32,576 nucleotides of DNA. Origin: a candidate division WOR-3 bacterium (lineage in GTDB: Bacteria; SDB-A). The translations under genes and the position numbers were made by a program. Positions 24 through 9,664 of this stretch are shown in pieces. Within the stretch, counting starts at the first letter, position 1. Every line of letters starts with the position of its first letter. The notes under the pieces were generated by a model. That model was given only the letters and a program-made list of their open reading frames with translations, ran no database searches and was not told the DNA's origin. Location: positions 1 through 32,576 of the forward strand of contig JAFGSQ010000061.1 of the NCBI GenBank assembly GCA_016934535.1, in the 5' to 3' direction.

Positions 24-261
24 TAACCACTAATTAACGCGAAAAAAGGAAAGAATAAGTTATAACCACGAATTGACACGAATGGACGCGAAAAAGACAG
101 AAAAATATTAACCACGAATCAGATTTTTGAATCGAAGATTCAAAATATCGTTACACGAAGAGACGATAAATGAAAGAAAGAGATATCCACCACGAAGGGT
201 GGGAAGCATCGCTTCCCACCTGCACGAAGGAAAAAATGTAAACATTTTTTCTACACGAAGG
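24..261. repeat. CACGAA-core repeat/hairpin cluster, locus A
   Basis: Contains taaccactaattaacgcgaa (24-43) and taaccacgaattgacacgaatggacgcgaa (63-92). CACGAA cores at 113, 154, 191, 223 and 254 bracket perfect hairpins at 125-145, 198-220 and 230-251. Confidence 0.85.
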
Positions 262-336
262 TTAAGAAAAGAAAAGTATAAAAATCTTACCGTAAAAATG
301 ATACAGTGATATGGCGCAGTGCGGCGCAGTAGTTTG

Positions 337-1386
337 TCACAGTAGCTCATAGTATTTAGTCGGGTCCGTGGCGCTTTGAGCCACCGGTTTGACTATCTTT
401 TTTTCTTCGAGTATCTCAAAATCCCTCTGGGCGGTCCTTCTTGAGCAGAGATTTTTGTTCTGGTGTTCGTTGATTGTTATTTTTCCGTTAATCAGTATTT
501 GTTTCAACGCTTTTATCTGCCTTTCGTTTAAATCCATTTTTCTGTATGTTCGCATTTTCTCTTCGCTGGAGATTATTTTTTCTCCCTTCAGCCGGATTTC
601 AGCCATCTGCGAACTGAGGCCGCTGACGAAATACTCCAACCAGGAGGTCATGTCCATCCTGCTGTTTCTGACAGATTGTATCGCTTTGTAATAGGAAGGT
701 CTGTCTCTGTCGTAAAACTCGGAAAGAGTGAAAAGCTTTTTGAAATCGTAACCGGTTTTGTAGAGAACGAGAGTCGAAAGAAGACGGGCAGCTCTGCCGT
801 TGCCGTCTATAAAAGGATGAATGTGAACGAGCCGAAATTGTGATATACCGGCGGCGAGAACCGGCGACATTTCTCCCGGCTTGTTGAGCCATTTGACGAG
901 CTCTTTCATCAGGGCCGGGACTTTTGAGGGAGGGGGAGGAGTGTAGACAATATTTTTGGTCATTGAGTTAATGAGATAATTTTGTATTTTTCTGTAATTA
1001 CCCGGATCTGATTTGTCATTCCTGACGCCTTTTACCAATATTTCGTGAAGTTTGCATATAATCTCTTCAGTAATCGGATCGTTCTTGCCCAAATATTTGG
1101 ATATAAAAAACATTGCTTTTTTGTAATTTAACAGTTCGCGCCTGTCATTTGGGTCAACGCCCAAAACTTTGTGGCCGGCCAGAATATTTTTCGCCTGATT
1201 GAAGTCGAGGCCGGTCCCTTCGATGTGAGTGGAATGATGGGCTTCAGTTACAAGAGCATTTTTCTGTATGTCGGATATCCAGTCCTCTTTAAGTTTTATG
1301 GCGTCAAGAAAACCGCTCACACGTTCAATTTCCGTGAGATTTTTATTCATTTTGGGAGTTATTCTAAATTTTGTTTTAAAAGACAT
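337..1386 (-). CDS. Fic family protein (class II, N-terminal inhibitory motif) with C-terminal winged HTH
   Basis: Canonical Fic motif HPFIDGNGRAAR; (S/T)xxxE(G/N) inhibitory motif STHIEG upstream; C-terminal LNERQ...SRRTAQRDF HTH. Confidence 0.93.
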   Translation of the reverse strand: MSFKTKFRITPKMNKNLTEIERVSGFLDAIKLKEDWISDIQKNALVTEAHHSTHIEGTGLDFNQAKNILAGHKVLGVDPNDRRELLNYKKAMFFISKYLGKNDPITEEIICKLHEILVKGVRNDKSDPGNYRKIQNYLINSMTKNIVYTPPPPSKVPALMKELVKWLNKPGEMSPVLAAGISQFRLVHIHPFIDGNGRAARLLSTLVLYKTGYDFKKLFTLSEFYDRDRPSYYKAIQSVRNSRMDMTSWLEYFVSGLSSQMAEIRLKGEKIISSEEKMRTYRKMDLNERQIKALKQILINGKITINEHQNKNLCSRRTAQRDFEILEEKKIVKPVAQSATDPTKYYELL

Positions 1387-1553
1387 TTTTCCTCTTTGCT
1401 CGATTATAACTTGTTTTGAATTGAAATAAAATCCGTGTCAATTGATCAGGGCATTTTATATATCCAATATCATTCAGCGATTTTAAATAAAATGATTTAA
1501 TGTTTTTTTAACGCCTAAAAGGTATTGAAATGTTCAAACTCAACAAAGGAGAG

Positions 1554-3158
1554 ATGGTGAAGGCAATTTTAGTTTTAATACTGATGTTGGCAACGGCAGT
1601 CAACGCTTATTCATCTATACGCGATTATCAGAGCGCGAAAATTGTAAGCATAATAGAAGACCAGGACCCCCTGGAACTTCTGCCTAATACAAGCAACGAA
1701 GTCTATCCTTATCTTCCCGATTTGCAGAGCAGGCCAGAAACACCTTCCGGTTACAACGGAGAATGGGGGACGGACAGGCTGATATCGAATGAATGTTGCA
1801 TGGAAAATTCAATAATTTCATTGGACTACGATAATGACGGTTTCCTGTATGTCGTCCTGATTTCGAAAAACAGCCAATATGACACTTTAAAAATATATAA
1901 ATCCGCTGATCAGGGAGTAACGTGGAATAGGATAGTTCAGTTTACTCCTTTAGTTCCCTATAAGATATTTGACGTGGAAATGAGAGTGAATCACACAGGA
2001 AGTGATCCTGACATTTATTTTTTCATGATAGATTCTTTTTCAGTAACAAACAAGAGATCGCTTTGGTTCTGCACTATTGATCAACCATCAATGACTAGTA
2101 ACTGGAAAGAGTTTCCGGACACAGTAACGATATTTGAAAAACCTCTCGAACTTTCGATTGACATCACCGACGAAGCGATACCCGATATCTGGTGCTCATA
2201 TAGCCGCGTGACGGCGTCAAATTACGGTTGGGCTTCAATCCGCTCTTCCGACGCCGGAGTGACATGGAATGTTTTCAGCCACAGCACGAACAGGGGCGGA
2301 AGGGATCCATACATTTCTTTTGGGACTGATTATGTTTATGAGGTGTGCGTTTACACGAACACATCAGACAGCAATGCCATAAGGTGCTGTATCACTGATA
2401 TTGGCGGTGGAGGAGATTATATATGGGTCTCTGATCAAAACCTTCAGGGAAGAACACGTCCCTGCGTTGCGAGCACGAGAATAGCATATCGTGCGAACAG
2501 GGTAGAAGTGCTCTATGAGGAGATTGCAGTTTCGGGGGAAATAATAAAAGAATCCTTCAGCAATGACGCCGGTCAGACTTGGACTTTGTCTCAACTATGG
2601 CCGATGACGGGTGATGCCGAGTCTGTTCATCCTTACGTCAGATCGGGTTGGCAGACGGGTGTATGCAGCGAATTTTGCGCTGTGGCAGCCATTCCGGGTG
2701 TTTTCGATTCTTTAGTTGTCGCTTACAATGTTGACGGGAACTGGACCGGCAGAATAACAGTAAACGAATACAAGGTGACCGGTGAAGTCACGTCTCAAGC
2801 TACTGTCACCTTAGGCGGAAGGGCTGTAGTATATCGTCAATACGGATCAGACAATGTTTGGTTTGACTCGAATGACAATGTCGCCGTTGAAGAAATCCCT
2901 TCTGAAGTCTTTCTGGATTGGAATATCACAGGACAGAATAATATTGTAAGGGTCAGTTTTACTCTTGAGACGCCGCAGTCAGTGACGTTGAAAATGTACG
3001 ATGTTCTCGGCAGAAATGTCCTGACGGAAGATTTCGGGAAGGTTTCTGAGGGAAGTCATTCTTATGTCCTGAACGCAGCGGAGATGAGTTCGGGCAGGTA
3101 TTTCGTCAGCGTAAGGGCAGGGGATCGGAATCTCTCAAAGCCTATTGTTCTTTTTTAG
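1554..3158 (+). CDS. Secreted Asp-box/BNR repeat (sialidase-like propeller) protein with T9SS-type C-terminal domain
   Basis: SD aaggag precedes ATG 1554 (ORF track starts at 1530). Signal peptide; Asp boxes KSADQGVTW, SSDAGVTW, SNDAGQTW; AVEE linker then YDVLGR...SGRYF CTD. Confidence 0.82.
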   Translation: MVKAILVLILMLATAVNAYSSIRDYQSAKIVSIIEDQDPLELLPNTSNEVYPYLPDLQSRPETPSGYNGEWGTDRLISNECCMENSIISLDYDNDGFLYVVLISKNSQYDTLKIYKSADQGVTWNRIVQFTPLVPYKIFDVEMRVNHTGSDPDIYFFMIDSFSVTNKRSLWFCTIDQPSMTSNWKEFPDTVTIFEKPLELSIDITDEAIPDIWCSYSRVTASNYGWASIRSSDAGVTWNVFSHSTNRGGRDPYISFGTDYVYEVCVYTNTSDSNAIRCCITDIGGGGDYIWVSDQNLQGRTRPCVASTRIAYRANRVEVLYEEIAVSGEIIKESFSNDAGQTWTLSQLWPMTGDAESVHPYVRSGWQTGVCSEFCAVAAIPGVFDSLVVAYNVDGNWTGRITVNEYKVTGEVTSQATVTLGGRAVVYRQYGSDNVWFDSNDNVAVEEIPSEVFLDWNITGQNNIVRVSFTLETPQSVTLKMYDVLGRNVLTEDFGKVSEGSHSYVLNAAEMSSGRYFVSVRAGDRNLSKPIVLF

Positions 3159-3181
3159 ATAATTGATTCATTGATAATAAC

Positions 3182-3209
3182 AAAGGCGGGAATAAATCCG
3201 CCTTTTTTT
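3182..3209 (+). terminator. Rho-independent terminator
   Basis: aaaggcgg/ccgccttt stem followed by a T-run, just downstream of the 1554-3158 stop. Confidence 0.8.
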
Positions 3210-3260
3210 GTTATCAGTGGTTATGTTTTTTGCTAATAAAATTTAAGAAAGAGGAAATTT

Positions 3261-3586
3261 AAACCACGAAGCGGGATAAAGCCTTACTTTATCCCTTCAC
3301 GAAGGTGAAGAAAAAAAACAAATAGATTATTCTTAATAAAATTTGTATTACTTCGTGTAGGGCACTTATTTGTCTTTAGCAAATAAGTGAACTTTCGTGT
3401 AGAAGGGTATTGCTGCTGTAATACCCTTCGCTTCGTTGTAAAAATTATTTTTGGTTTTTCTTCGTAATGCATCAAATAAGTGAATTAGCAGTCGTGGTAG
3501 AAATTGTATTTAGTCTTTACAGAATAAAAAACAAGAAGAGATGTCAACCACGAAGGAAAAAATGTAAACAATCCATCTTCACGAAG
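3261..3586. repeat. CACGAA-core repeat/hairpin cluster, locus B
   Basis: Forward cores 3265 and 3298 around hairpin 3273-3295. Inverted TTCGTG cores 3352 and 3394 (degenerate ones at 3432 and about 3491) around hairpins 3363-3389 and 3402-3429. Forward cores again at 3549 and 3580. 3549-3570 is identical to 223-244 (22 bp). Confidence 0.85.
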
Positions 3587-3729
3587 CCGTCTATTTTTAC
3601 TCTGTCGGAAAGTAAGAATGGTTTATAAATTTACTTATGAATTGCTTGCTTTTTAATCGTCAAAACTTTGGTATGATTTTTTCCCTTTTCGTAATAAAAT
3701 TATGTTAACAGTTTAAGACAGGAGGAAAA

Positions 3730-4167
3730 ATGGCGTTACTCGATTTTGTAAAAGACGCGGGTAAAAACCTTATCAAAGACGCAAAACAGGCGACTTTGAA
3801 ACCCGAAGATTTGGCCAATGAATTGAAACTGCACGGATTTGAGATTCAGGATCTCAAGATCGGAGTCGACAAGGAAAAAGTCCTCGTTTCTGGAAAAGCA
3901 AAATCTCAGGAAGAAAGGGAAAAAGCCATTCTGTGTCTCGGAAACATAAAGGGCGTCGCTCAGATAGACGACAAGATCGCCATCGGTAAGGCCGAACCCG
4001 AATCGGGATATTATACTGTCAAATCCGGAGACACCCTTTCGAAAATCTCCAAGGAACAATACGGGGACCCGAACAAATACAACACAATCTTCGAGGCAAA
4101 CAAACCCATGCTGAAAGACGTTAACAAGATATACCCGGGTCAGGTTCTCAGGATACCCAAAAAGTAA
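3730..4167 (+). CDS. kbp: BON + LysM domain protein (Kbp/YgaU family)
   Basis: N-terminal LDFVKDAGK, BON domain, LysM YTVKSGDTLSKISKEQYG...IYPGQVLRIP; SD ggagg. Confidence 0.9.
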   Translation: MALLDFVKDAGKNLIKDAKQATLKPEDLANELKLHGFEIQDLKIGVDKEKVLVSGKAKSQEEREKAILCLGNIKGVAQIDDKIAIGKAEPESGYYTVKSGDTLSKISKEQYGDPNKYNTIFEANKPMLKDVNKIYPGQVLRIPKK

Positions 4168-4182
4168 TAGTTTTAACTTCAA

Positions 4183-4220
4183 GGTGTGTCATATATCCAT
4201 GATGACACACCATTTTTTTT
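4183..4220 (+). terminator. Rho-independent terminator after kbp
   Basis: Perfect 10-bp stem ggtgtgtcat/atgacacacc followed by A and 8 T. Confidence 0.75.
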
Positions 4221-4247
4221 AATATTTGTAATGTTAAGGAGAAAAAC

Positions 4248-4745
4248 ATGGGATTGCTTGAATCGATTCTGAATTCCGATGCGTCACCTCTGAATAAAAT
4301 CGGAGATAAATTCGGGCTCAGTGAACAGCAGACCGCGGAAGTGGTAAAATTGTTTCTACCTGCTTTAACAGAAGGTATTAAAAAAAATGTGTCCCAAAAA
4401 GGGGGACTGGAAAGTTTGCTCGGTGCGCTCGCCAACGGGAATCACGATAAATATCTGAACGACGCGAATTCGCTGGATTCAGACAATGCAATTTCGGACG
4501 GCAACGGGATCCTCGGTCATGTGCTTAAAAACAAAGAAGTCAGTAAACAACTTGCAAAAAAGACCTCTGAAATTACGGGGGTAGATTCAAAAATACTTGA
4601 AAAAATGCTGCCTCTGGCGGCAGGACTGGCGATGGGAGCGCTGAAAAAACAGGGAGGAAAATCGGGTATTGTTTCCCAGCTTGTAGGAAGTGCACCGGCG
4701 CCATCAGCCCTTGATACAGTTATGTCTTTATTGAGCGGAGATTAA
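4248..4745 (+). CDS. DUF937 family protein (C-terminus possibly chimeric or truncated)
   Basis: Family-like pattern GNGILGHVL...LEKMLPLAAGLAMGAL; SD aaggag. Confidence 0.78.
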   Translation: MGLLESILNSDASPLNKIGDKFGLSEQQTAEVVKLFLPALTEGIKKNVSQKGGLESLLGALANGNHDKYLNDANSLDSDNAISDGNGILGHVLKNKEVSKQLAKKTSEITGVDSKILEKMLPLAAGLAMGALKKQGGKSGIVSQLVGSAPAPSALDTVMSLLSGD

Positions 4746-4890
4746 TAGTCAATCAGTCGAATATACGACTAAAGCGAACAGAGCGCTGATCGAAATCGCT
4801 TACAGAAGAACACCTTCTCTGAAAGACACACCTGATGAAATTCTCGATCTGGTCGCAGAGTATCCGAAGTCTACAAAAGCGATAAAGTAG
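4735..4890 (+). pseudogene. Start-less 3' gene remnant (about 50 codons), possibly the tail of a linear amide C-N hydrolase
   Basis: Open frame AEINSQSVEYTTKANRALIEIAYRRTPSLKDTPDEILDLVAEYPKSTKAIK* with coding-like composition and no upstream start or SD. The family assignment is from memory only. Confidence 0.45.
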
Positions 4891-4911
4891 AATAATTAAG
4901 TTAATACGCTG

Positions 4912-6327
4912 TTATTTTTCAAGACCTGTAGGAGATCCGTACCATACGAAAATTGCTCCCTGCGTGTCGTCTTCGAGCGTAATTCCGGATGCTCCTGCAA
5001 CAATGTCGTCAAAACCATCGCCGTTTACATCGCCGGCACAGGAAACTGTAATGCCTAACAGCGCATTTTCGACATCGGATTCAATTAACGAATAAGAAGA
5101 ATTTGAAAGGCCTGTGGGCGAACCGTAGAAAAGATAAACTGCTCCTTCCATACTCTCGCCGTTTTTATAACCGTGGGCTCCGACAATGACGTCGCCGTAA
5201 CCGTCGCCGTTTATGTCTCCGGCGGCCGAAACATCGTATCCGAAAACGGAATTTTCAATTCCTGACGCAAAGGACCAGTTCAACAGGTCCGAAAGACCGG
5301 AGGAAGATCCGCTGAACGAAAACGCTGCGCCCTGCCAGGCCTCGCCGCCGCTGAACATCGGCGCCCCGATCAAAACTTCGTCGTATCCGTCGCCGTTGAC
5401 GTCGCCGGCAGAGGAGACCGAGGTTCCGTATTCAGTTCCTATCTGAACGGGCATGGCTGTCCAGTCGGGCTCCGAGGGGAGCCCTGATCCGGTGCCGTAA
5501 AAAACCAGCGCGGAGCCGAATTCCTCATCCGCGAAGTCGAAATAAGGCGCTCCAGCAATAATGTCGGAAAAACCGTCGCCGTTTACGTCCCCGGCACTGG
5601 AAACAGACCATCCGAGGTTTGACCATTCCTGATCGGATTCATAGGACCAGTCATAATTTTTGGAGGGGCCGGAAGAAGATCCGTAATAGACGAAAATCCC
5701 GCCCTCATATTCCTGATAGTTGGAGAAATTGTAAGAACCTGCTACGATGTCAGAATATCCGTCTTTATTGATGTCGCCTGCTGATGAAACCGAAGATCCG
5801 AAAAATGCTTCGAGTTGATTTATTTCGGATGTCCAATCAGGAGTTTCAGAGAGTCCTTCAGGCGATCCGTAATATATAAAAACCCTTCCCTTGTCATTTT
5901 GTTCGTCGCCGTATCCCGGTGATCCGATAATGACGTCCGAATAACCGTCGCCGTTGACATCGCCGGCTCCGGACACAGCCCATCCGAATTTAGCTTCCAC
6001 CAGGTCGGATTCCGCCAACCAGTCCGGAGAAGATGATAAGCCGTTTTCAGATCCGTAAAAAACTAGAGCGGCTCCTTCGAAAGGTTCCTCATCCATGAAG
6101 TACGGGACCCCCGCGATAATGTCGTCGTATCCGTCTCCGTTAACGTCGCCGGCAGAAGACACGGAAGTCACGGAAAGACCTAAATTCGCATAAATGTGTT
6201 TGGTGGAAAAAGTCCAATCGGAATCAAAAGAAGAAAATAGAACGAAATCTTTTGCAAAAAAAGTCAATGTCAACAGAACAATCAATTTTTTAAACGTTCC
6301 ATACGATATTAATCTTATTCCTTTCAC
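4912..6327 (-). CDS. FG-GAP / integrin-alpha beta-propeller repeat protein
   Basis: Seven repeats of G.SVS.AGDVNGDG(Y/F).D.I.GA....G.VF..YGS; N-terminal hydrophobic segment; GTG start with SD aagggg. Confidence 0.93.
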   Translation of the reverse strand: MKGIRLISYGTFKKLIVLLTLTFFAKDFVLFSSFDSDWTFSTKHIYANLGLSVTSVSSAGDVNGDGYDDIIAGVPYFMDEEPFEGAALVFYGSENGLSSSPDWLAESDLVEAKFGWAVSGAGDVNGDGYSDVIIGSPGYGDEQNDKGRVFIYYGSPEGLSETPDWTSEINQLEAFFGSSVSSAGDINKDGYSDIVAGSYNFSNYQEYEGGIFVYYGSSSGPSKNYDWSYESDQEWSNLGWSVSSAGDVNGDGFSDIIAGAPYFDFADEEFGSALVFYGTGSGLPSEPDWTAMPVQIGTEYGTSVSSAGDVNGDGYDEVLIGAPMFSGGEAWQGAAFSFSGSSSGLSDLLNWSFASGIENSVFGYDVSAAGDINGDGYGDVIVGAHGYKNGESMEGAVYLFYGSPTGLSNSSYSLIESDVENALLGITVSCAGDVNGDGFDDIVAGASGITLEDDTQGAIFVWYGSPTGLEK

Positions 6328-6481
6328 AACAATTCCCCTTTAAAGAATTTTATAAAATCTCTTTTATTATAAGAATTAAACACCATTTGTCATACAAAAT
6401 AAACAGAGTATTATCATGAAATATCTCTTGCATTGGAATAAATTACTGAATAATTTAGGTTTAAACCGTTTGTAATAAAAA

Positions 6482-8083
6482 ATGAAAAAAATAAACACAC
6501 TTTTCCTTTGCATATTTGTTTATTCAGCTACAGTTATTATTCTCGTTGTCTCGGGCATTAGATCAAATTCCGGAACATTTGTTTACCCTCTCGATGACAC
6601 GTACATACACATGGCTTTAGCCCGGAATTTTGCCGGCAACGGAGTATGGGGTGTCAACGGAAATACACATTCTTTTTGTTCTTCGTCACCTCTTTGGACG
6701 TTGCTGTTATCATCTTTATATTTTGTTATTGGAAGCAGCATCTGGCTGCCACTGGTTCTCAATATTGCATTCGGAGTGTTGTTTATAATTTTTGCTTTTA
6801 ATTTTCTGCATAAAACCATGAATCTGACCGCCACTTTTTTTGCGGTGAATCTTTTGGTGTTTTCAATTTCACTGCCTGCTTTGACTTTAATCGCCATGGA
6901 ACATGTTTTACATATTTTGCTGACTGCGGTATTTTTGTATTTTGCGTCTGATCTTATCGGACGTGATAAATGCGGAAAATCGGGTGTCGTGAAAATTTCC
7001 TTTATCGCTTTTTTGCTTTCTTCTGTGAGATATGAGGGAATTTTCGCAGTTCTATCGGTTTGTTTGTTCCTGCTTTTTATCAAAAAATACAAAACAGCTG
7101 TGATTGTCGGGACTTCGGGTGTTATGCCGGCTTTTATACACGGTGCTTTTTCAACAGCCAAAGGATGGAAGTTTTTTCCAAGTTCAGTGCTTATAAAAAG
7201 AGCCTCTCTTTCGTTCAGTTCATTTGAAAGAATTTTGGATTCAATCGGAGGTTTGGCCATCAGGAAACTCTGGTCCTGTCATGCGCTTTTGTCTGTTTTG
7301 GCTCTGATAATTATAAGCTTTTATATAAAGAATTCAGAATCCGAGGAGAAAAGTTTAAGGAACAATTATCTTTTTCCCGTGGTTATTCTGGTTACTATTT
7401 TGCATCTGCAATTTGCCGCATTAGGCTGGATATATCGGTACGAAGCATATCTTATCGCTTTGGGACTTTTGATTTCATTGCCGATCATATCGAAGAAGCT
7501 GTTTATTCTTTTAAGGAACTGGACAAGACCTGTACAGCCGGTAAAATTGCTCGTTTTATGCGTATCAATGTTGATAATCGTTTTTCCTCTGGTTGACAGA
7601 GGCAGAAAAATGACCAGAGACGTTTATTATGCGATGAACGACAGATATCTGGAACACGTATTTCCAGCTCTTTTTTTGGAAAAATATTATGATGGTGCAG
7701 TGATTGTACTCAACGACATTGGAATAGCGTCATATTACTGTGACTGCAAAATCTTAGATGTTTCCGGTTTAGGCAGTATAGAACCGTTGAACTTCAGAAT
7801 GAAAACGGACGGATATACAAAAGATGATGTGTACGAATGGTCGAGTTCGGAAAATGCCCGGATCGCGATAATTCAAGTTAAATGGAAAGAAATCGCACAG
7901 AAGATTCCGGATCAGTGGGTGAAGGTCTGTCAATGGGAAATCCCGAGGAATACTGTATTCGGAGACACGGTCGTCGGATTTTTCGGTACGGATTCGGCTC
8001 AGGCATTAAAATTGAAGGAAAATATTATAGATTTCTCAAACTATATGCCAAGAAATATCCATATAACATGGGAACTAATGTAA
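6482..8083 (+). CDS. Polytopic membrane protein, GT-C-like glycosyltransferase
   Basis: Many TM helices; LDDTYIH...ARN after TM1, SSPLW, ME and RYEG motifs; soluble C-terminal domain with DIG...ILDVSGL. Confidence 0.65.
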   Translation: MKKINTLFLCIFVYSATVIILVVSGIRSNSGTFVYPLDDTYIHMALARNFAGNGVWGVNGNTHSFCSSSPLWTLLLSSLYFVIGSSIWLPLVLNIAFGVLFIIFAFNFLHKTMNLTATFFAVNLLVFSISLPALTLIAMEHVLHILLTAVFLYFASDLIGRDKCGKSGVVKISFIAFLLSSVRYEGIFAVLSVCLFLLFIKKYKTAVIVGTSGVMPAFIHGAFSTAKGWKFFPSSVLIKRASLSFSSFERILDSIGGLAIRKLWSCHALLSVLALIIISFYIKNSESEEKSLRNNYLFPVVILVTILHLQFAALGWIYRYEAYLIALGLLISLPIISKKLFILLRNWTRPVQPVKLLVLCVSMLIIVFPLVDRGRKMTRDVYYAMNDRYLEHVFPALFLEKYYDGAVIVLNDIGIASYYCDCKILDVSGLGSIEPLNFRMKTDGYTKDDVYEWSSSENARIAIIQVKWKEIAQKIPDQWVKVCQWEIPRNTVFGDTVVGFFGTDSAQALKLKENIIDFSNYMPRNIHITWELM

Positions 8084-8085
8084 GA

Positions 8086-8163
8086 TGGCGGGGTAGACGG
8101 GACTCGAACCCGCGGCCTCTGGCTTGACAGGCCAGTGTGCTAACCAAACTGCACCACTACCCC
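8086..8163 (-). tRNA. tRNA-Asp (GTC)
   Basis: Minus strand reads GGGGTAG...ctggc-CT-GTC-AA-gccag...GGTTCGAGTCC...CTACCCC-G-CCA. The cloverleaf is complete, with encoded CCA and discriminator G. Confidence 0.97.
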
Positions 8164-8176
8164 TCTGGAATAAGGA

Positions 8177-8204
8177 ATTATAAGTAATTGAAAATTAAAG
8201 TCAA
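8177..8204 (-). promoter_or_regulatory. Sigma70-type promoter for tRNA-Asp
   Basis: Minus strand TTGACT (8204-8199), 16-nt spacer, TATAAT (8182-8177), 13 nt upstream of the tRNA 5' end. Confidence 0.75.
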
Positions 8205-8305
8205 GGATTTTAGTAGAGAAGAGAACTGAAGAACTTCCACCACGGTTATAATGTAGTGTGAAAAAAGAATATAAGAAACTAACCGCAAAAAAGAAAGAAA
8301 AAAAT

Positions 8306-8447
8306 TAACCACGAATTGACACGAATGAACGCTAATGGATGCGAAGGATAAGAAAGAAACTATTCTATATAAAATTTGTTACCAAATTTTATAACTTCGT
8401 GTAGCTGGTTTATTTGCCTTATGCAAATAAGCCAGCCTTCTTGGTAG
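8306..8447. repeat. CACGAA-core repeat/hairpin cluster, locus C
   Basis: 8306-8327 is identical to 63-84 (22 bp). Perfect 11-bp hairpin at 8368-8393. acttcgtgtag + 14-bp hairpin (8404-8436) + cttcttggtag is homologous to 3350-3400. Confidence 0.85.
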
Positions 8448-8494
8448 AAATATTCTTAGTTCTTTGATTAAAATTTTTTAAAAAAAGATAGAAT

Positions 8495-9664
8495 TCAGAT
8501 CATCGAAGAAAGGATCGCGGTTAACTCGTCTACGAGGACTGCGCCTTCTTCAGTCACACGGCACCTTGTTTTTGATATTGATATTAAATTTTTCTCAATC
8601 AAATTTCCGGTTTTTTCTCTGCTGAAATTTTTGAATATACCGAGGCGGACACCTTCTTTTGTCCTCAATCCCGTCATCAGTATTTCGAGTCTTCTTTGTT
8701 GTTCGGTGACCTCTTCGCTTTCAGCGAGAATTTTTCCTTTAGAATAGGAAACAAGGTCGGATATGTTTTTCCACCTCCTGTTTCCTATACGCGACACAGA
8801 AGCGGGTCCGAAACCCAAATAGTTCTTTCCTTTCCAGATGTGAGAATTGTGGACGCTTCTCGCGTTGAAATCTTTTCTGAAATTACTTGTTTCATACCGC
8901 TCGTATCCGCTGTCTGACAGTATTTTTCCTACGAGCCTGAAAAGAGAAAGAGATTTTTCTTCGTCCAAAGGTCTTATTTTGCCTTTTTCCGTGTCTTCAA
9001 AAAGAGGGCATCCTTTTTCAATTGTCAGAGCGTAAGCTGAGACGTGGTCGGGCGAGAGAGACAGCACTTTTTCAAGGTCCTTTCTCAGGGATTTTTCGTC
9101 TTCGCCGGGAACACCGAATATAAAATCCACAGAGACTGATTTGGCGCGGGACTTCCTGCAAGCCTCGAAGGCTTCAAGAGCTTTCGAGGCGCTGTGAATC
9201 CTTCCGAGAAAACGTAATTTTCTGTCGTTCAGGCTTTGTACGCCGAGAGAGAGTCTCGTTACGCCTTCAAGGGTTAAAAACCTCGCGTAATCGTTGTCGA
9301 CAAGTTCCGGATTGAGTTCGACGGCGAATTCCTGCGACGGATCATTCAGTCCGGAAGATTCGAGAAAGGACATGAAAGCGACTGCGTTCTTTCCGCGCAA
9401 TATGTTGGGAGTCCCTCCGCCGATGTGCAGAGTTCTGGCCCTGGGATGCGCCTTGTATTCAGACAATTCAGTTTTTAATCCTGAAAGGTATTGAGAAATT
9501 CTGTTGTCGGTAGAGTGGAATGATGTAAAATTACAGTACAGGCATTTTTTTACGCAAAGCGGAACGTGAACATAATAGTCGGTGGCAAGAAGAGATTGAG
9601 TTTGATGATGGGAGTGAGTATGAATTGGCTCCTGGCCGTTTCTTTCGGTGTCGTTTTTTTTCAT
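8495..9664 (-). CDS. hemW: Radical SAM heme chaperone HemW / HemN-like protein
   Basis: YVHVPLCVKKCLYCNF (CxxxCxxC), GGGTP, RLSLGVQS, YETSNF...HNSHIW, YLGFGP. Confidence 0.88.
   Translation of the reverse strand: MKKNDTERNGQEPIHTHSHHQTQSLLATDYYVHVPLCVKKCLYCNFTSFHSTDNRISQYLSGLKTELSEYKAHPRARTLHIGGGTPNILRGKNAVAFMSFLESSGLNDPSQEFAVELNPELVDNDYARFLTLEGVTRLSLGVQSLNDRKLRFLGRIHSASKALEAFEACRKSRAKSVSVDFIFGVPGEDEKSLRKDLEKVLSLSPDHVSAYALTIEKGCPLFEDTEKGKIRPLDEEKSLSLFRLVGKILSDSGYERYETSNFRKDFNARSVHNSHIWKGKNYLGFGPASVSRIGNRRWKNISDLVSYSKGKILAESEEVTEQQRRLEILMTGLRTKEGVRLGIFKNFSREKTGNLIEKNLISISKTRCRVTEEGAVLVDELTAILSSMI

Follow-up and report, generated by a model that had tools for sequence, protein, structure and literature searches.

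Three intergenic loci (24-261, 3261-3586 and 8306-8447) in a 32,576-nucleotide stretch of DNA from a candidate division WOR-3 bacterium (contig JAFGSQ010000061.1 of assembly GCA_016934535.1; the whole stretch is called the window hereafter) are members of a real, genus-wide family of mosaic repeats, in which short CACGAA cores alternate with hairpins. The best explanation for these loci, to which we assign a probability of roughly 60%, is that they are non-autonomous, selfish DNA-level repeats, derived from the ends of cassettes that carry a GxxExxY gene and enlarged by an expansion of hairpin modules specific to this genus. A sequence-only reading of the window, made without database searches, had suggested that the loci are empty, non-autonomous copies of such an element, and this remains the best reading because the link between GxxExxY genes and the core heptamers is real and because a copy with the gene between its two halves occurs in a congeneric genome.

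Further copies of the elements were found in 4/4 genomes of the genus, namely the window's own genome (G000; 2.23 Mb, 152 contig ends) and three congeneric genomes (G001, G002 and G003). Paired cores of the form CACGAAG-N14-40-CACGAAG occurred 27 times in G000 versus 0 times for a reversed control, and 18, 18 and 12 times in the congeneric genomes. The pattern was absent (0 matches) from two genomes of other genera of the family, one of which is 88% complete, and more distant genomes held just scattered matches of a kind also seen for the control. These scans resolved ~20 loci in G000, although the true copy number is probably higher because contig ends stop inside elements (~11-13 of the 152 contig ends, including the start of the window's contig, where the 23 bases upstream of position 24 fall within the element). 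In a sequencing run of a related strain, summed contig depth over positions 1-300 was ~10x that of the flanking genes. The expected enrichment between genes was also evident, with CACGAAG ~6x denser (0.280 vs 0.047 per kb) and ACCACGAA ~18x denser (0.160 vs 0.009 per kb) outside than inside long open reading frames (ORFs) of G000, as delimited by a crude ORF mask. Window-wide, the CACGAA hexamer was not significantly enriched (29 occurrences vs 22.8 +/- 4.6 expected, with 8/100 shuffles reaching 29), and 16 of the 29 occurrences fall inside the three loci, which amount to 706 bases, or 2.2% of the window.

The copies follow a common grammar. A half-element consists of a leader (AAGAGATATCC or AATTTCT), a terminal core ACCACGAAG and then n modules of a hairpin, two nucleotides and CACGAAG. 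Half-elements are found in both orientations, and composite copies run from a forward half through a tataaaatttg-type central palindrome and an AT-rich spacer to an inverted half with the terminal core CTTCGTGGT. Terminal inverted repeats of the form ACCACGAAG ... CTTCGTGGT bracket composite copies in contigs C18 (1472-1735), C70 (at its start) and C29, while the termini of the window copies are partly decayed (repeat family D7). A hairpin-less variant takes the form of a 10-bp tandem array (ACCACGAA-ttg-ACACGAA-tgg-ACGCGAA). Differences between close relatives consist of single 31-bp hairpin-plus-core modules that have been gained, lost or fused. At the two orthologous sites compared within the genus, an element was present in some form in every species with the site assembled, though with differing modules; where G000 has an array of 545 bp, for instance, G002 has a minimal core and palindrome, and the contigs of G003 break there.

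The sequence-only reading had proposed that hairpin structure is kept while hairpin sequence varies, and this was borne out across the genus. Among 75 core-to-core spacers from the four genomes, comprising 69 distinct sequences, 66 are hairpins with a stem of at least 7 pairs and at most 1 mismatch, whereas shuffled spacers yield 1.7 on average and 5 at most. Pairing within the stems is also conserved: in the 24-nt class (17 distinct sequences), 138/153 stem cells are Watson-Crick paired, against a mean of 101.8 (maximum 115) for column shuffles and 47-60 for slid registers, and 6/9 stem pairs occur as two or more pair types. Related hairpin families are recognisable (AATTG/CAATT, AAATG/CATTT, TTATTTGC/GCAAATAA and GGAAGC/GCTTCC), and the hairpins have diverged by descent with compensation, not by acquisition from outside. 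The earlier description of the loci as the reverse of a CRISPR array stands as an analogy only, the hairpins sharing descent and not being acquired. CRISPR and integron attC arrays are similar in that constant and variable parts alternate regularly, and attC sites are also recognised by their structure. In contrast to CRISPR arrays, however, the constant unit here measures 7-9 nt (vs repeats of 23-50 bp) and the spacers are palindromes in related families. No attC core sites (RYYYAAC/GTTRRRY) were evident by eye in the window sequence, and no search for intI was made.

The placement of the hairpins is similarly regular. The stem begins 0 nt past the core in 43/62 distinct hairpins and stops 2 nt before the next core in 52/62, such that removal of the hairpin leaves a linker of 2 nt in 39/62 and of 3 nt in 10/62. 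The 2-nt residual linker is the same gap that separates successive heptamers flanking GxxExxY genes in other phyla (2 nt in 83/115). Hairpins maintained this strongly might instead belong to arrays that act as RNA, whether as exonuclease-blocking cis structures in 3' or intercistronic regions, as RNase III substrates resembling the intervening sequences of rRNA, or as a sponge presenting single-stranded CACGAAG, spaced by hairpins, to an RNA-binding protein. Once folded, the hairpins would leave the cores single-stranded at a regular 9-10-nt spacing, pairing of the inverted arrays could close off the cargo, and the loci lie downstream of genes and terminators, with 0/10 assignable loci between divergent genes vs 172/606 in the background (from crude ORF calls). 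However, forward and inverted halves occur in one locus, so that no single strand carries the motif throughout, and the composition of the mismatches points the other way: the 607 pairs of the 62 distinct hairpins include 34 mismatches (G.T 5, A.C 10 and transversion-type 19), without an excess of the G.U type on either strand (5 and 10 of 34). Wobble pairs are thus unfavoured whichever strand is read, a pattern more in keeping with symmetry preserved in the DNA than with selection on an RNA, and stem perfection is probably maintained on DNA. Nor do the outermost 2-nt spacers of opposite arms covary (22/50 vs 17.7 +/- 3.2, with 238/2000 permutations as high), which argues weakly against a selected long stem and in favour of repeated protein sites. 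Rfam returned no relevant match, with only a tRNA at gathering score in the window and nothing relevant at E<=1 among the 10 loci searched. None of the sequencing runs listed as containing the stretch is an RNA run, and the contigs of two RNA runs belonging to the source study included nothing on the elements, which has no bearing on expression either way. Between recombination sites in single-stranded DNA (ssDNA) and a structured RNA, the balance leans towards DNA because the stems show no G.U tolerance, both orientations occur within one locus and the arm spacers do not covary; a function as RNA is therefore considered unlikely. The RNA repeats of type III toxin-antitoxin systems were also considered and dropped, as no toxin gene recurs beside the arrays and the arrays lie in both orientations.

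The element's relationship to GxxExxY genes, which the sequence-only reading had raised for other genomes, proved to be real. In contig C53 of G001, a + + + half and an array of - - - halves exactly enclose a 123-aa ORF, which replaces the central palindrome and spacer and matches PF13366 (E 1.4e-43) and TIGR04256 'GxxExxY protein' (E 4.8e-45). Downstream of this gene (locus L134, C53 644-1235) stand ~5 tandem copies of the inverted half-element, each with two hairpins, CTTCGTGGTTGATATTC and a ~50-nt spacer, an arrangement that was probably made by unequal recombination. Beyond the genus, 80 loci encoding relatives of the G001 protein at 46-73% identity were sampled from many phyla, and the flanks of 39 of them carried CACGAAG or CACAGAG heptamers, at least two of them and in the correct orientation. 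Heptamers in the correct orientation (50 + 148, or 198) outnumbered those in the wrong one (20 + 31, or 51). In 29/80 loci the gene is bracketed by ACCACnnnn...nnnnGTGGT (ACCACnnnn <=150 bp upstream and the matching nnnnGTGGT <=150 bp downstream), the bracket being ACCACAGAG in 19 cases, ACCACGAAG in 9 and ACCACAGAT in 1. The commonest 8-mers in the flanks were ACCACAGA and CCACAGAG upstream and TCTGTGGT downstream, while a count of loci with 7-mers common to the upstream and inverted downstream flanks was uninformative (71/80 vs 64/80 for a same-orientation control). Similarly, the GxxExxY gene of G005, a genome from another genus of the window's family, is flanked by a ACCACAGA-type 10-bp array (AACCACAGA-taa-ACACAGA-ag-ACACAGA) and its inverse, and the hairpin-less ACCACGAAtttACACGAA version has 9 occurrences in that genome.

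End type clusters on the GxxExxY protein tree (4 changes vs 9.7 in shuffles; 0/500 shuffles as low), and the tree neighbour of the G001 protein comes from a Desulfobacteraceae metagenome-assembled genome (MAG; 73% identity), indicating that gene and ends travel together and cross phyla. Residues D67, E77 and K79 are invariant in 44/44 aligned GxxExxY proteins, and a structure model (predicted local distance difference test score, pLDDT, of 96.2) has a nuclease fold. Foldseek retrieved weak matches to generic PD-(D/E)XK folds only (best Cas4, E 8e-3; none at E<=0.001), and a search of the PDB with the protein sequence gave nothing below E 0.4. The function of PDDEXK_3 is given as 'Unknown' in PMC3424549, with multiple transfers.

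The genus also encodes another candidate enzyme, a Y1_Tnp protein (PF01797, E 1.2e-12) present as one copy in 3/4 genomes, whose best NCBIfam match is the REP-associated tyrosine transposase (RAYT). If the loci resembled repetitive extragenic palindromes (REPs) or REPINs, the hairpins and their short conserved 5' flank would be substrates of this single-copy (IS200-like, RAYT-like) transposase, which would spread and maintain them in trans. On the inverted strand, G(T/C/A)AG precedes each hairpin and resembles the GTAG motif of REPs. The loci are extragenic and clustered in both orientations, as in bacterial interspersed mosaic elements (BIMEs), and they share with REP, BIME and REPIN systems the palindromes, the short conserved flank and the compensatory evolution of stems. 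In contrast to REPs, however, the hairpin sequences are unconserved and diverse (69 distinct/75), what stays invariant is the core of 7-9 nt that separates the hairpins, and copies number in the tens, not hundreds. The flanks of the Y1 gene of G000 lack cores and family hairpins, the NF047646 score of 54.8 bits is under the cut-off of 80, G003 has 12 modules yet no Y1 match, and the link that crosses phyla is to GxxExxY genes. Mobilisation by the Y1 protein is on this evidence highly improbable. The Y1 gene itself (G000:C43:4233-5160, minus strand) encodes a 308-aa protein with an N-terminal Y1 (IS200-like) domain.

Gene-less relatives of the cassettes also occur in other phyla. A scan of 596 Gb with the 16-base pattern ACCACGAAGNNCACGAAG returned at least 128 loci, and all ratios given here are from the matches listed. 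A full inverse partner was present within 300 bp in 25/128, and further matches carry CTTCGTGGT. The paired gene-less elements measure 35-280 bp and their hosts include Acidobacteriota, Verrucomicrobiota, Planctomycetota, Chloroflexota, Desulfobacterota, Proteobacteria and others; one paired element encloses a truncated GxxExxY gene. In a Desulfobacteraceae-type family (genomes G042, G060, G061 and G069), G042, which holds the gene-bearing locus L160, has 31 end motifs and 3 GxxExxY genes, and the family contains gene fragments and a mini-element of ~110-130 bp with up to ~20 copies per genome. Both states of a single orthologous intergenic site are seen in this family, the filled one in G042 and G069 and the empty one in G060 and G061. 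A second scan of the genome collection, in which three cores had to be separated by gaps of 20-45 nt, does not bear either way on hairpin arrays beyond the genus: the matches listed were chance matches in GC-rich DNA, apart from 3 with stems in both gaps that looked like tandem, apparently coding repeats. ORFs downstream of solo end motifs, inspected as possible cargo, were mostly spurious.

Three further loci were noted elsewhere. In a Terriglobia MAG (L298, ~1001-1076), a 76-bp gene-less heptamer element lies within a longer perfect inverted repeat (~20 bp each side), reflecting either insertion into the loop of an existing hairpin or element ends that reach further. In Bowmanella pacifica (L172), several cassettes stand in series with a conserved junction of inverted array, ~30-nt linker and forward array, a layout reminiscent of a cassette array. 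In an unrelated family (L394, G033:C19:16300-17500), ACCACGAA-ata-CACGAA arrays of 4 and 3 units, both forward, flank two ORFs.

Several observations weigh against a derivation of the window loci from GxxExxY cassettes. No GxxExxY (PF13366) match was found in G000, G002 or G003, a tblastn search for a gene remnant in G000 found none (best E 0.44) and no GxxExxY gene lies between arrays in the window; with no nuclease gene there, activity in G000 would require an as yet unfound factor. No clean empty site was seen at the two orthologous sites compared within the genus, so that transposition within the genus is unsupported. The flanks show no consistent target-site duplication and no exact boundary is definable, as similarity between copies extends past the heptamer arrays and leaves the borders unfixed. 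In the wider sample, 41/80 GxxExxY loci do not reach two heptamers of the types counted, and the exact end pattern coincides with 1/3 of the GxxExxY genes in G042. Single ACCACGAAGNNCACGAAG hits carry no proof, since ~280 would be expected by chance in 596 Gb, and only the paired hits count. Finally, the role of the heptamers as sites for the nuclease is putative.

Alternatively, the cores could be sites for a host DNA-binding protein, iteron-like or nucleoid-organising, with the phased direct repeats functional and the hairpins tolerated insertions. The hairpin-less versions are indeed direct repeats with a 9-10-bp period, and the core is conserved far outside the genus. However, module content at orthologous positions differs wholly between species, many copies are decayed or fused and the loci break the assembly in the manner of selfish repeats, and elsewhere the motif moves with the nuclease gene and is not fixed at host loci. 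We consequently give this explanation very little credence.

If the loci do derive from GxxExxY cassettes, the full cassette would comprise a gene for a GxxExxY PD-(D/E)XK nuclease between inverted arrays of tandem CAC-heptamers, with ends of the form (TTC)ACCACGAAG-nn-CACGAAG-nn-CACGAAG ... CTTCGTG-nn-CTTCGTGGT(GAA). Two arrays in the window (64-92 and 8308-8346) fit this definition of cassette ends, having a leading ACCAC-RRAG, CAC-RRAG cores and a 9-10-nt period. The heptamers would be putative binding or cleavage sites of the cassette nuclease, and the inverted arrays would mark the element ends. In this genus, the arrays appear to have been widened by palindromic modules, most of which directly abut a heptamer on its 3' side and stop 2 nt short of the following heptamer, and extrusion of the hairpins, as a cruciform or in ssDNA, would restore the ancestral 9-10-nt core period. 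Copies would then change mainly by gain, loss and fusion of core-plus-hairpin modules through recombination between short repeats. Because G000 has no nuclease gene, its copies would be non-autonomous and are probably inert at present. A broader proposal, which is possible but distinctly tentative, is that CAC-heptamer arrays and the 120-aa GxxExxY nuclease form an undescribed, multi-phylum superfamily of bacterial mobile cassettes with MITE-like gene-less offspring, in which the heptamers would be recognised by the nuclease and cleaved on their 3' side. As palindromes accumulated mostly right at this edge, cleavage followed by fold-back repair, over and over, may have left them as footprints.

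No published description of the array family was found in a literature search, subscription journals and supplements being outside it. Among known systems, the elements share with miniature inverted-repeat transposable elements (MITEs) a small, non-coding, multi-copy and intergenic nature, inverted ends, a gene-bearing relative with the same ends (G001 C53, L160 and others, mobilisation by GxxExxY being putative), intermediates with a truncated gene and, in another phylum, a filled and an empty site. Unlike those of MITEs, however, the ends consist of 2-3 tandem heptamers instead of a simple inverted repeat, variable hairpins alternate with the cores of the arrays, the gene encodes a 120-aa PD-(D/E)XK nuclease and no known transposase, and no consistent target-site duplication was seen. 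BOX elements of Streptococcus pneumoniae are modular boxA-boxB(n)-boxC repeats, and the present family is likewise intergenic, mosaic and modular, with internal modules that vary in number. Compared by description, BOX modules are conserved sequences, whereas here variable hairpins separate a fixed core. GxxExxY and four-helix-bundle genes are linked in annotation lore with inserts in rRNA. Unlike such inserts, the elements described here are intergenic, and no four-helix-bundle gene (PF05635) scored above cut-off in the genus. They do resemble intervening sequences of 23S rRNA that bear an ORF, such as the Coxiella one with its S23p ORF (PMC4990558), in being a small selfish insert with one tiny ORF.

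Within the window, the cores, hairpins and shared modules listed in the sequence-only reading are all present at the positions it gave. Leading (A/C)ACCACGAA cores start at 64, 110, 188, 3262, 3546 and 8307, further NCACGAA(G) cores at 76, 153, 222, 253, 3297, 3579 and 8319. Cores in the inverted form, TTCGTG, start at 3351, 3393 and 8395. The seven hairpins are perfect at 125, 198, 230, 3273 and 3363 and have one mismatch at 3402 and 8404. Two modules are identical between loci (63-84 = 8306-8327 and 223-244 = 3549-3570), and a repeat search recovered the shared modules independently as families D3, D5-D9, D11 and D14. The loci are slightly longer than first described, with degenerate inverted termini of the form CTTCGTGGTAGAAATT at 3430-3446, 3491-3505 and 8437-8451.

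The first locus opens with degenerate, hairpin-less tandem cores, AACCACTAAT-TAACGCGAA, with a 10-bp period (24..44, + strand; families D3 and D14), followed by the hairpin-less array ACCACGAA-ttg-ACACGAA-tgg-ACGCGAA with the same period (64..92, +). A module at 110..160 (+) comprises the leading core AACCACGAA, a perfect hairpin at 125-145 (9-bp stem, 3-nt loop) and the closing core ACACGAAG at 153-160, and recurs in contigs C14, C20, C28 and C46. It is followed by a half-element at 181..260 (+), with the leader AGATATCC, terminal core ACCACGAAG (189-197), hairpin (198-220), core (223-229), hairpin (230-251) and core (254-260), to which near-identical modules exist in G001 and G003. The second locus begins with a leader, terminal core ACCACGAAG (3263-3271), hairpin (3273-3295) and core (3298-3304), together spanning 3249..3304 (+), and has one hairpin-plus-core module fewer at 3265-3304 than G003. 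An AT-rich spacer with a partial central palindrome of the tataaaatttg...caaattttata type (3327..3350, no strand assigned; D4 and D18) leads to an inverted half at 3351..3446 (-; D6 and D7), made up of CTTCGTG (3351-3357), a hairpin (3363-3389), TTCGTG (3394-3399), a hairpin with 1 mismatch (3402-3429) and the degenerate terminus CTTCGTTGTAAAAATT (3430-3446). A decayed inverted half at 3460..3505 (-; D7) retains a core-like CTTCGTA, a single hairpin arm and the terminus GTCGTGGTAGAAATT (3491-3505). The forward half-element at 3533..3586 (+) has a leader, ACCACGAAG (3547-3555), a two-hairpin chimera and a core (3580-3586); in the chimera (3556-3578), the left arm of one hairpin is joined to the right arm of the next, corresponding to a 31-bp deletion relative to G003 and run X6. 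The third locus consists of a leader and hairpin-less tandem array at 8284..8346 (+; D3 and D5), with ACCACGAA (8308-8315), ACACGAA (8319-8325), ACGCTAA (8329-8335) and ATGCGAAG (8339-8346), then a central palindrome of the tataaaatttg family (8368..8393, no strand assigned; 11-bp stem, 4-nt loop), a family that recurs in other copies, and an inverted half at 8395..8451 (-; D6 and D7) with CTTCGTG (8395-8401), a hairpin (8404-8436; 14-bp stem, 1 mismatch) and the degenerate terminus CTTCTTGGTAGAAAT (8437-8451).

The genes around the loci are a Fic/DOC-family gene (337-1386, -) directly beside the first locus, genes for a BNR / secretion-tail protein (1530-3158) and a BON-LysM protein (3730-4167), a tRNA-Asp (8086-8163, -) and a radical-SAM HemN-like gene (8495-9664, -). 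Small ORFs overlapping the loci had no Pfam match. The gene for an FG-GAP repeat protein (4912-6327, -) has a 186-bp internal periodicity in its DNA (families D1 and D2). The BON-LysM region exists in two versions in G003, a short contig (C29:1-1151) that is 90% identical to the window versus a region (C12:28129-30820) that is syntenic with the tRNA-Asp and radical-SAM gene at only 74-78% identity. This difference points to either a recent transfer or the presence of a second strain in the bin.

GxxExxY genes are very common and usually ignored. Heptamer-array ends that travel with them provide a testable substrate for these genes of obscure function, and suggest a family of small mobile cassettes that standard insertion sequence (IS) and MITE catalogues would overlook, and whose gene-less derivatives fragment metagenome assemblies. 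The hairpin-expanded arrays of this genus represent a natural experiment, in which the palindromes, by where they sit, point to one exact junction, the core's 3' edge, as the place at which the DNA is acted upon. If the palindromes are indeed footprints of cleavage and repair, the arrays would record the enzyme's cut site and would function only upon hairpin extrusion.

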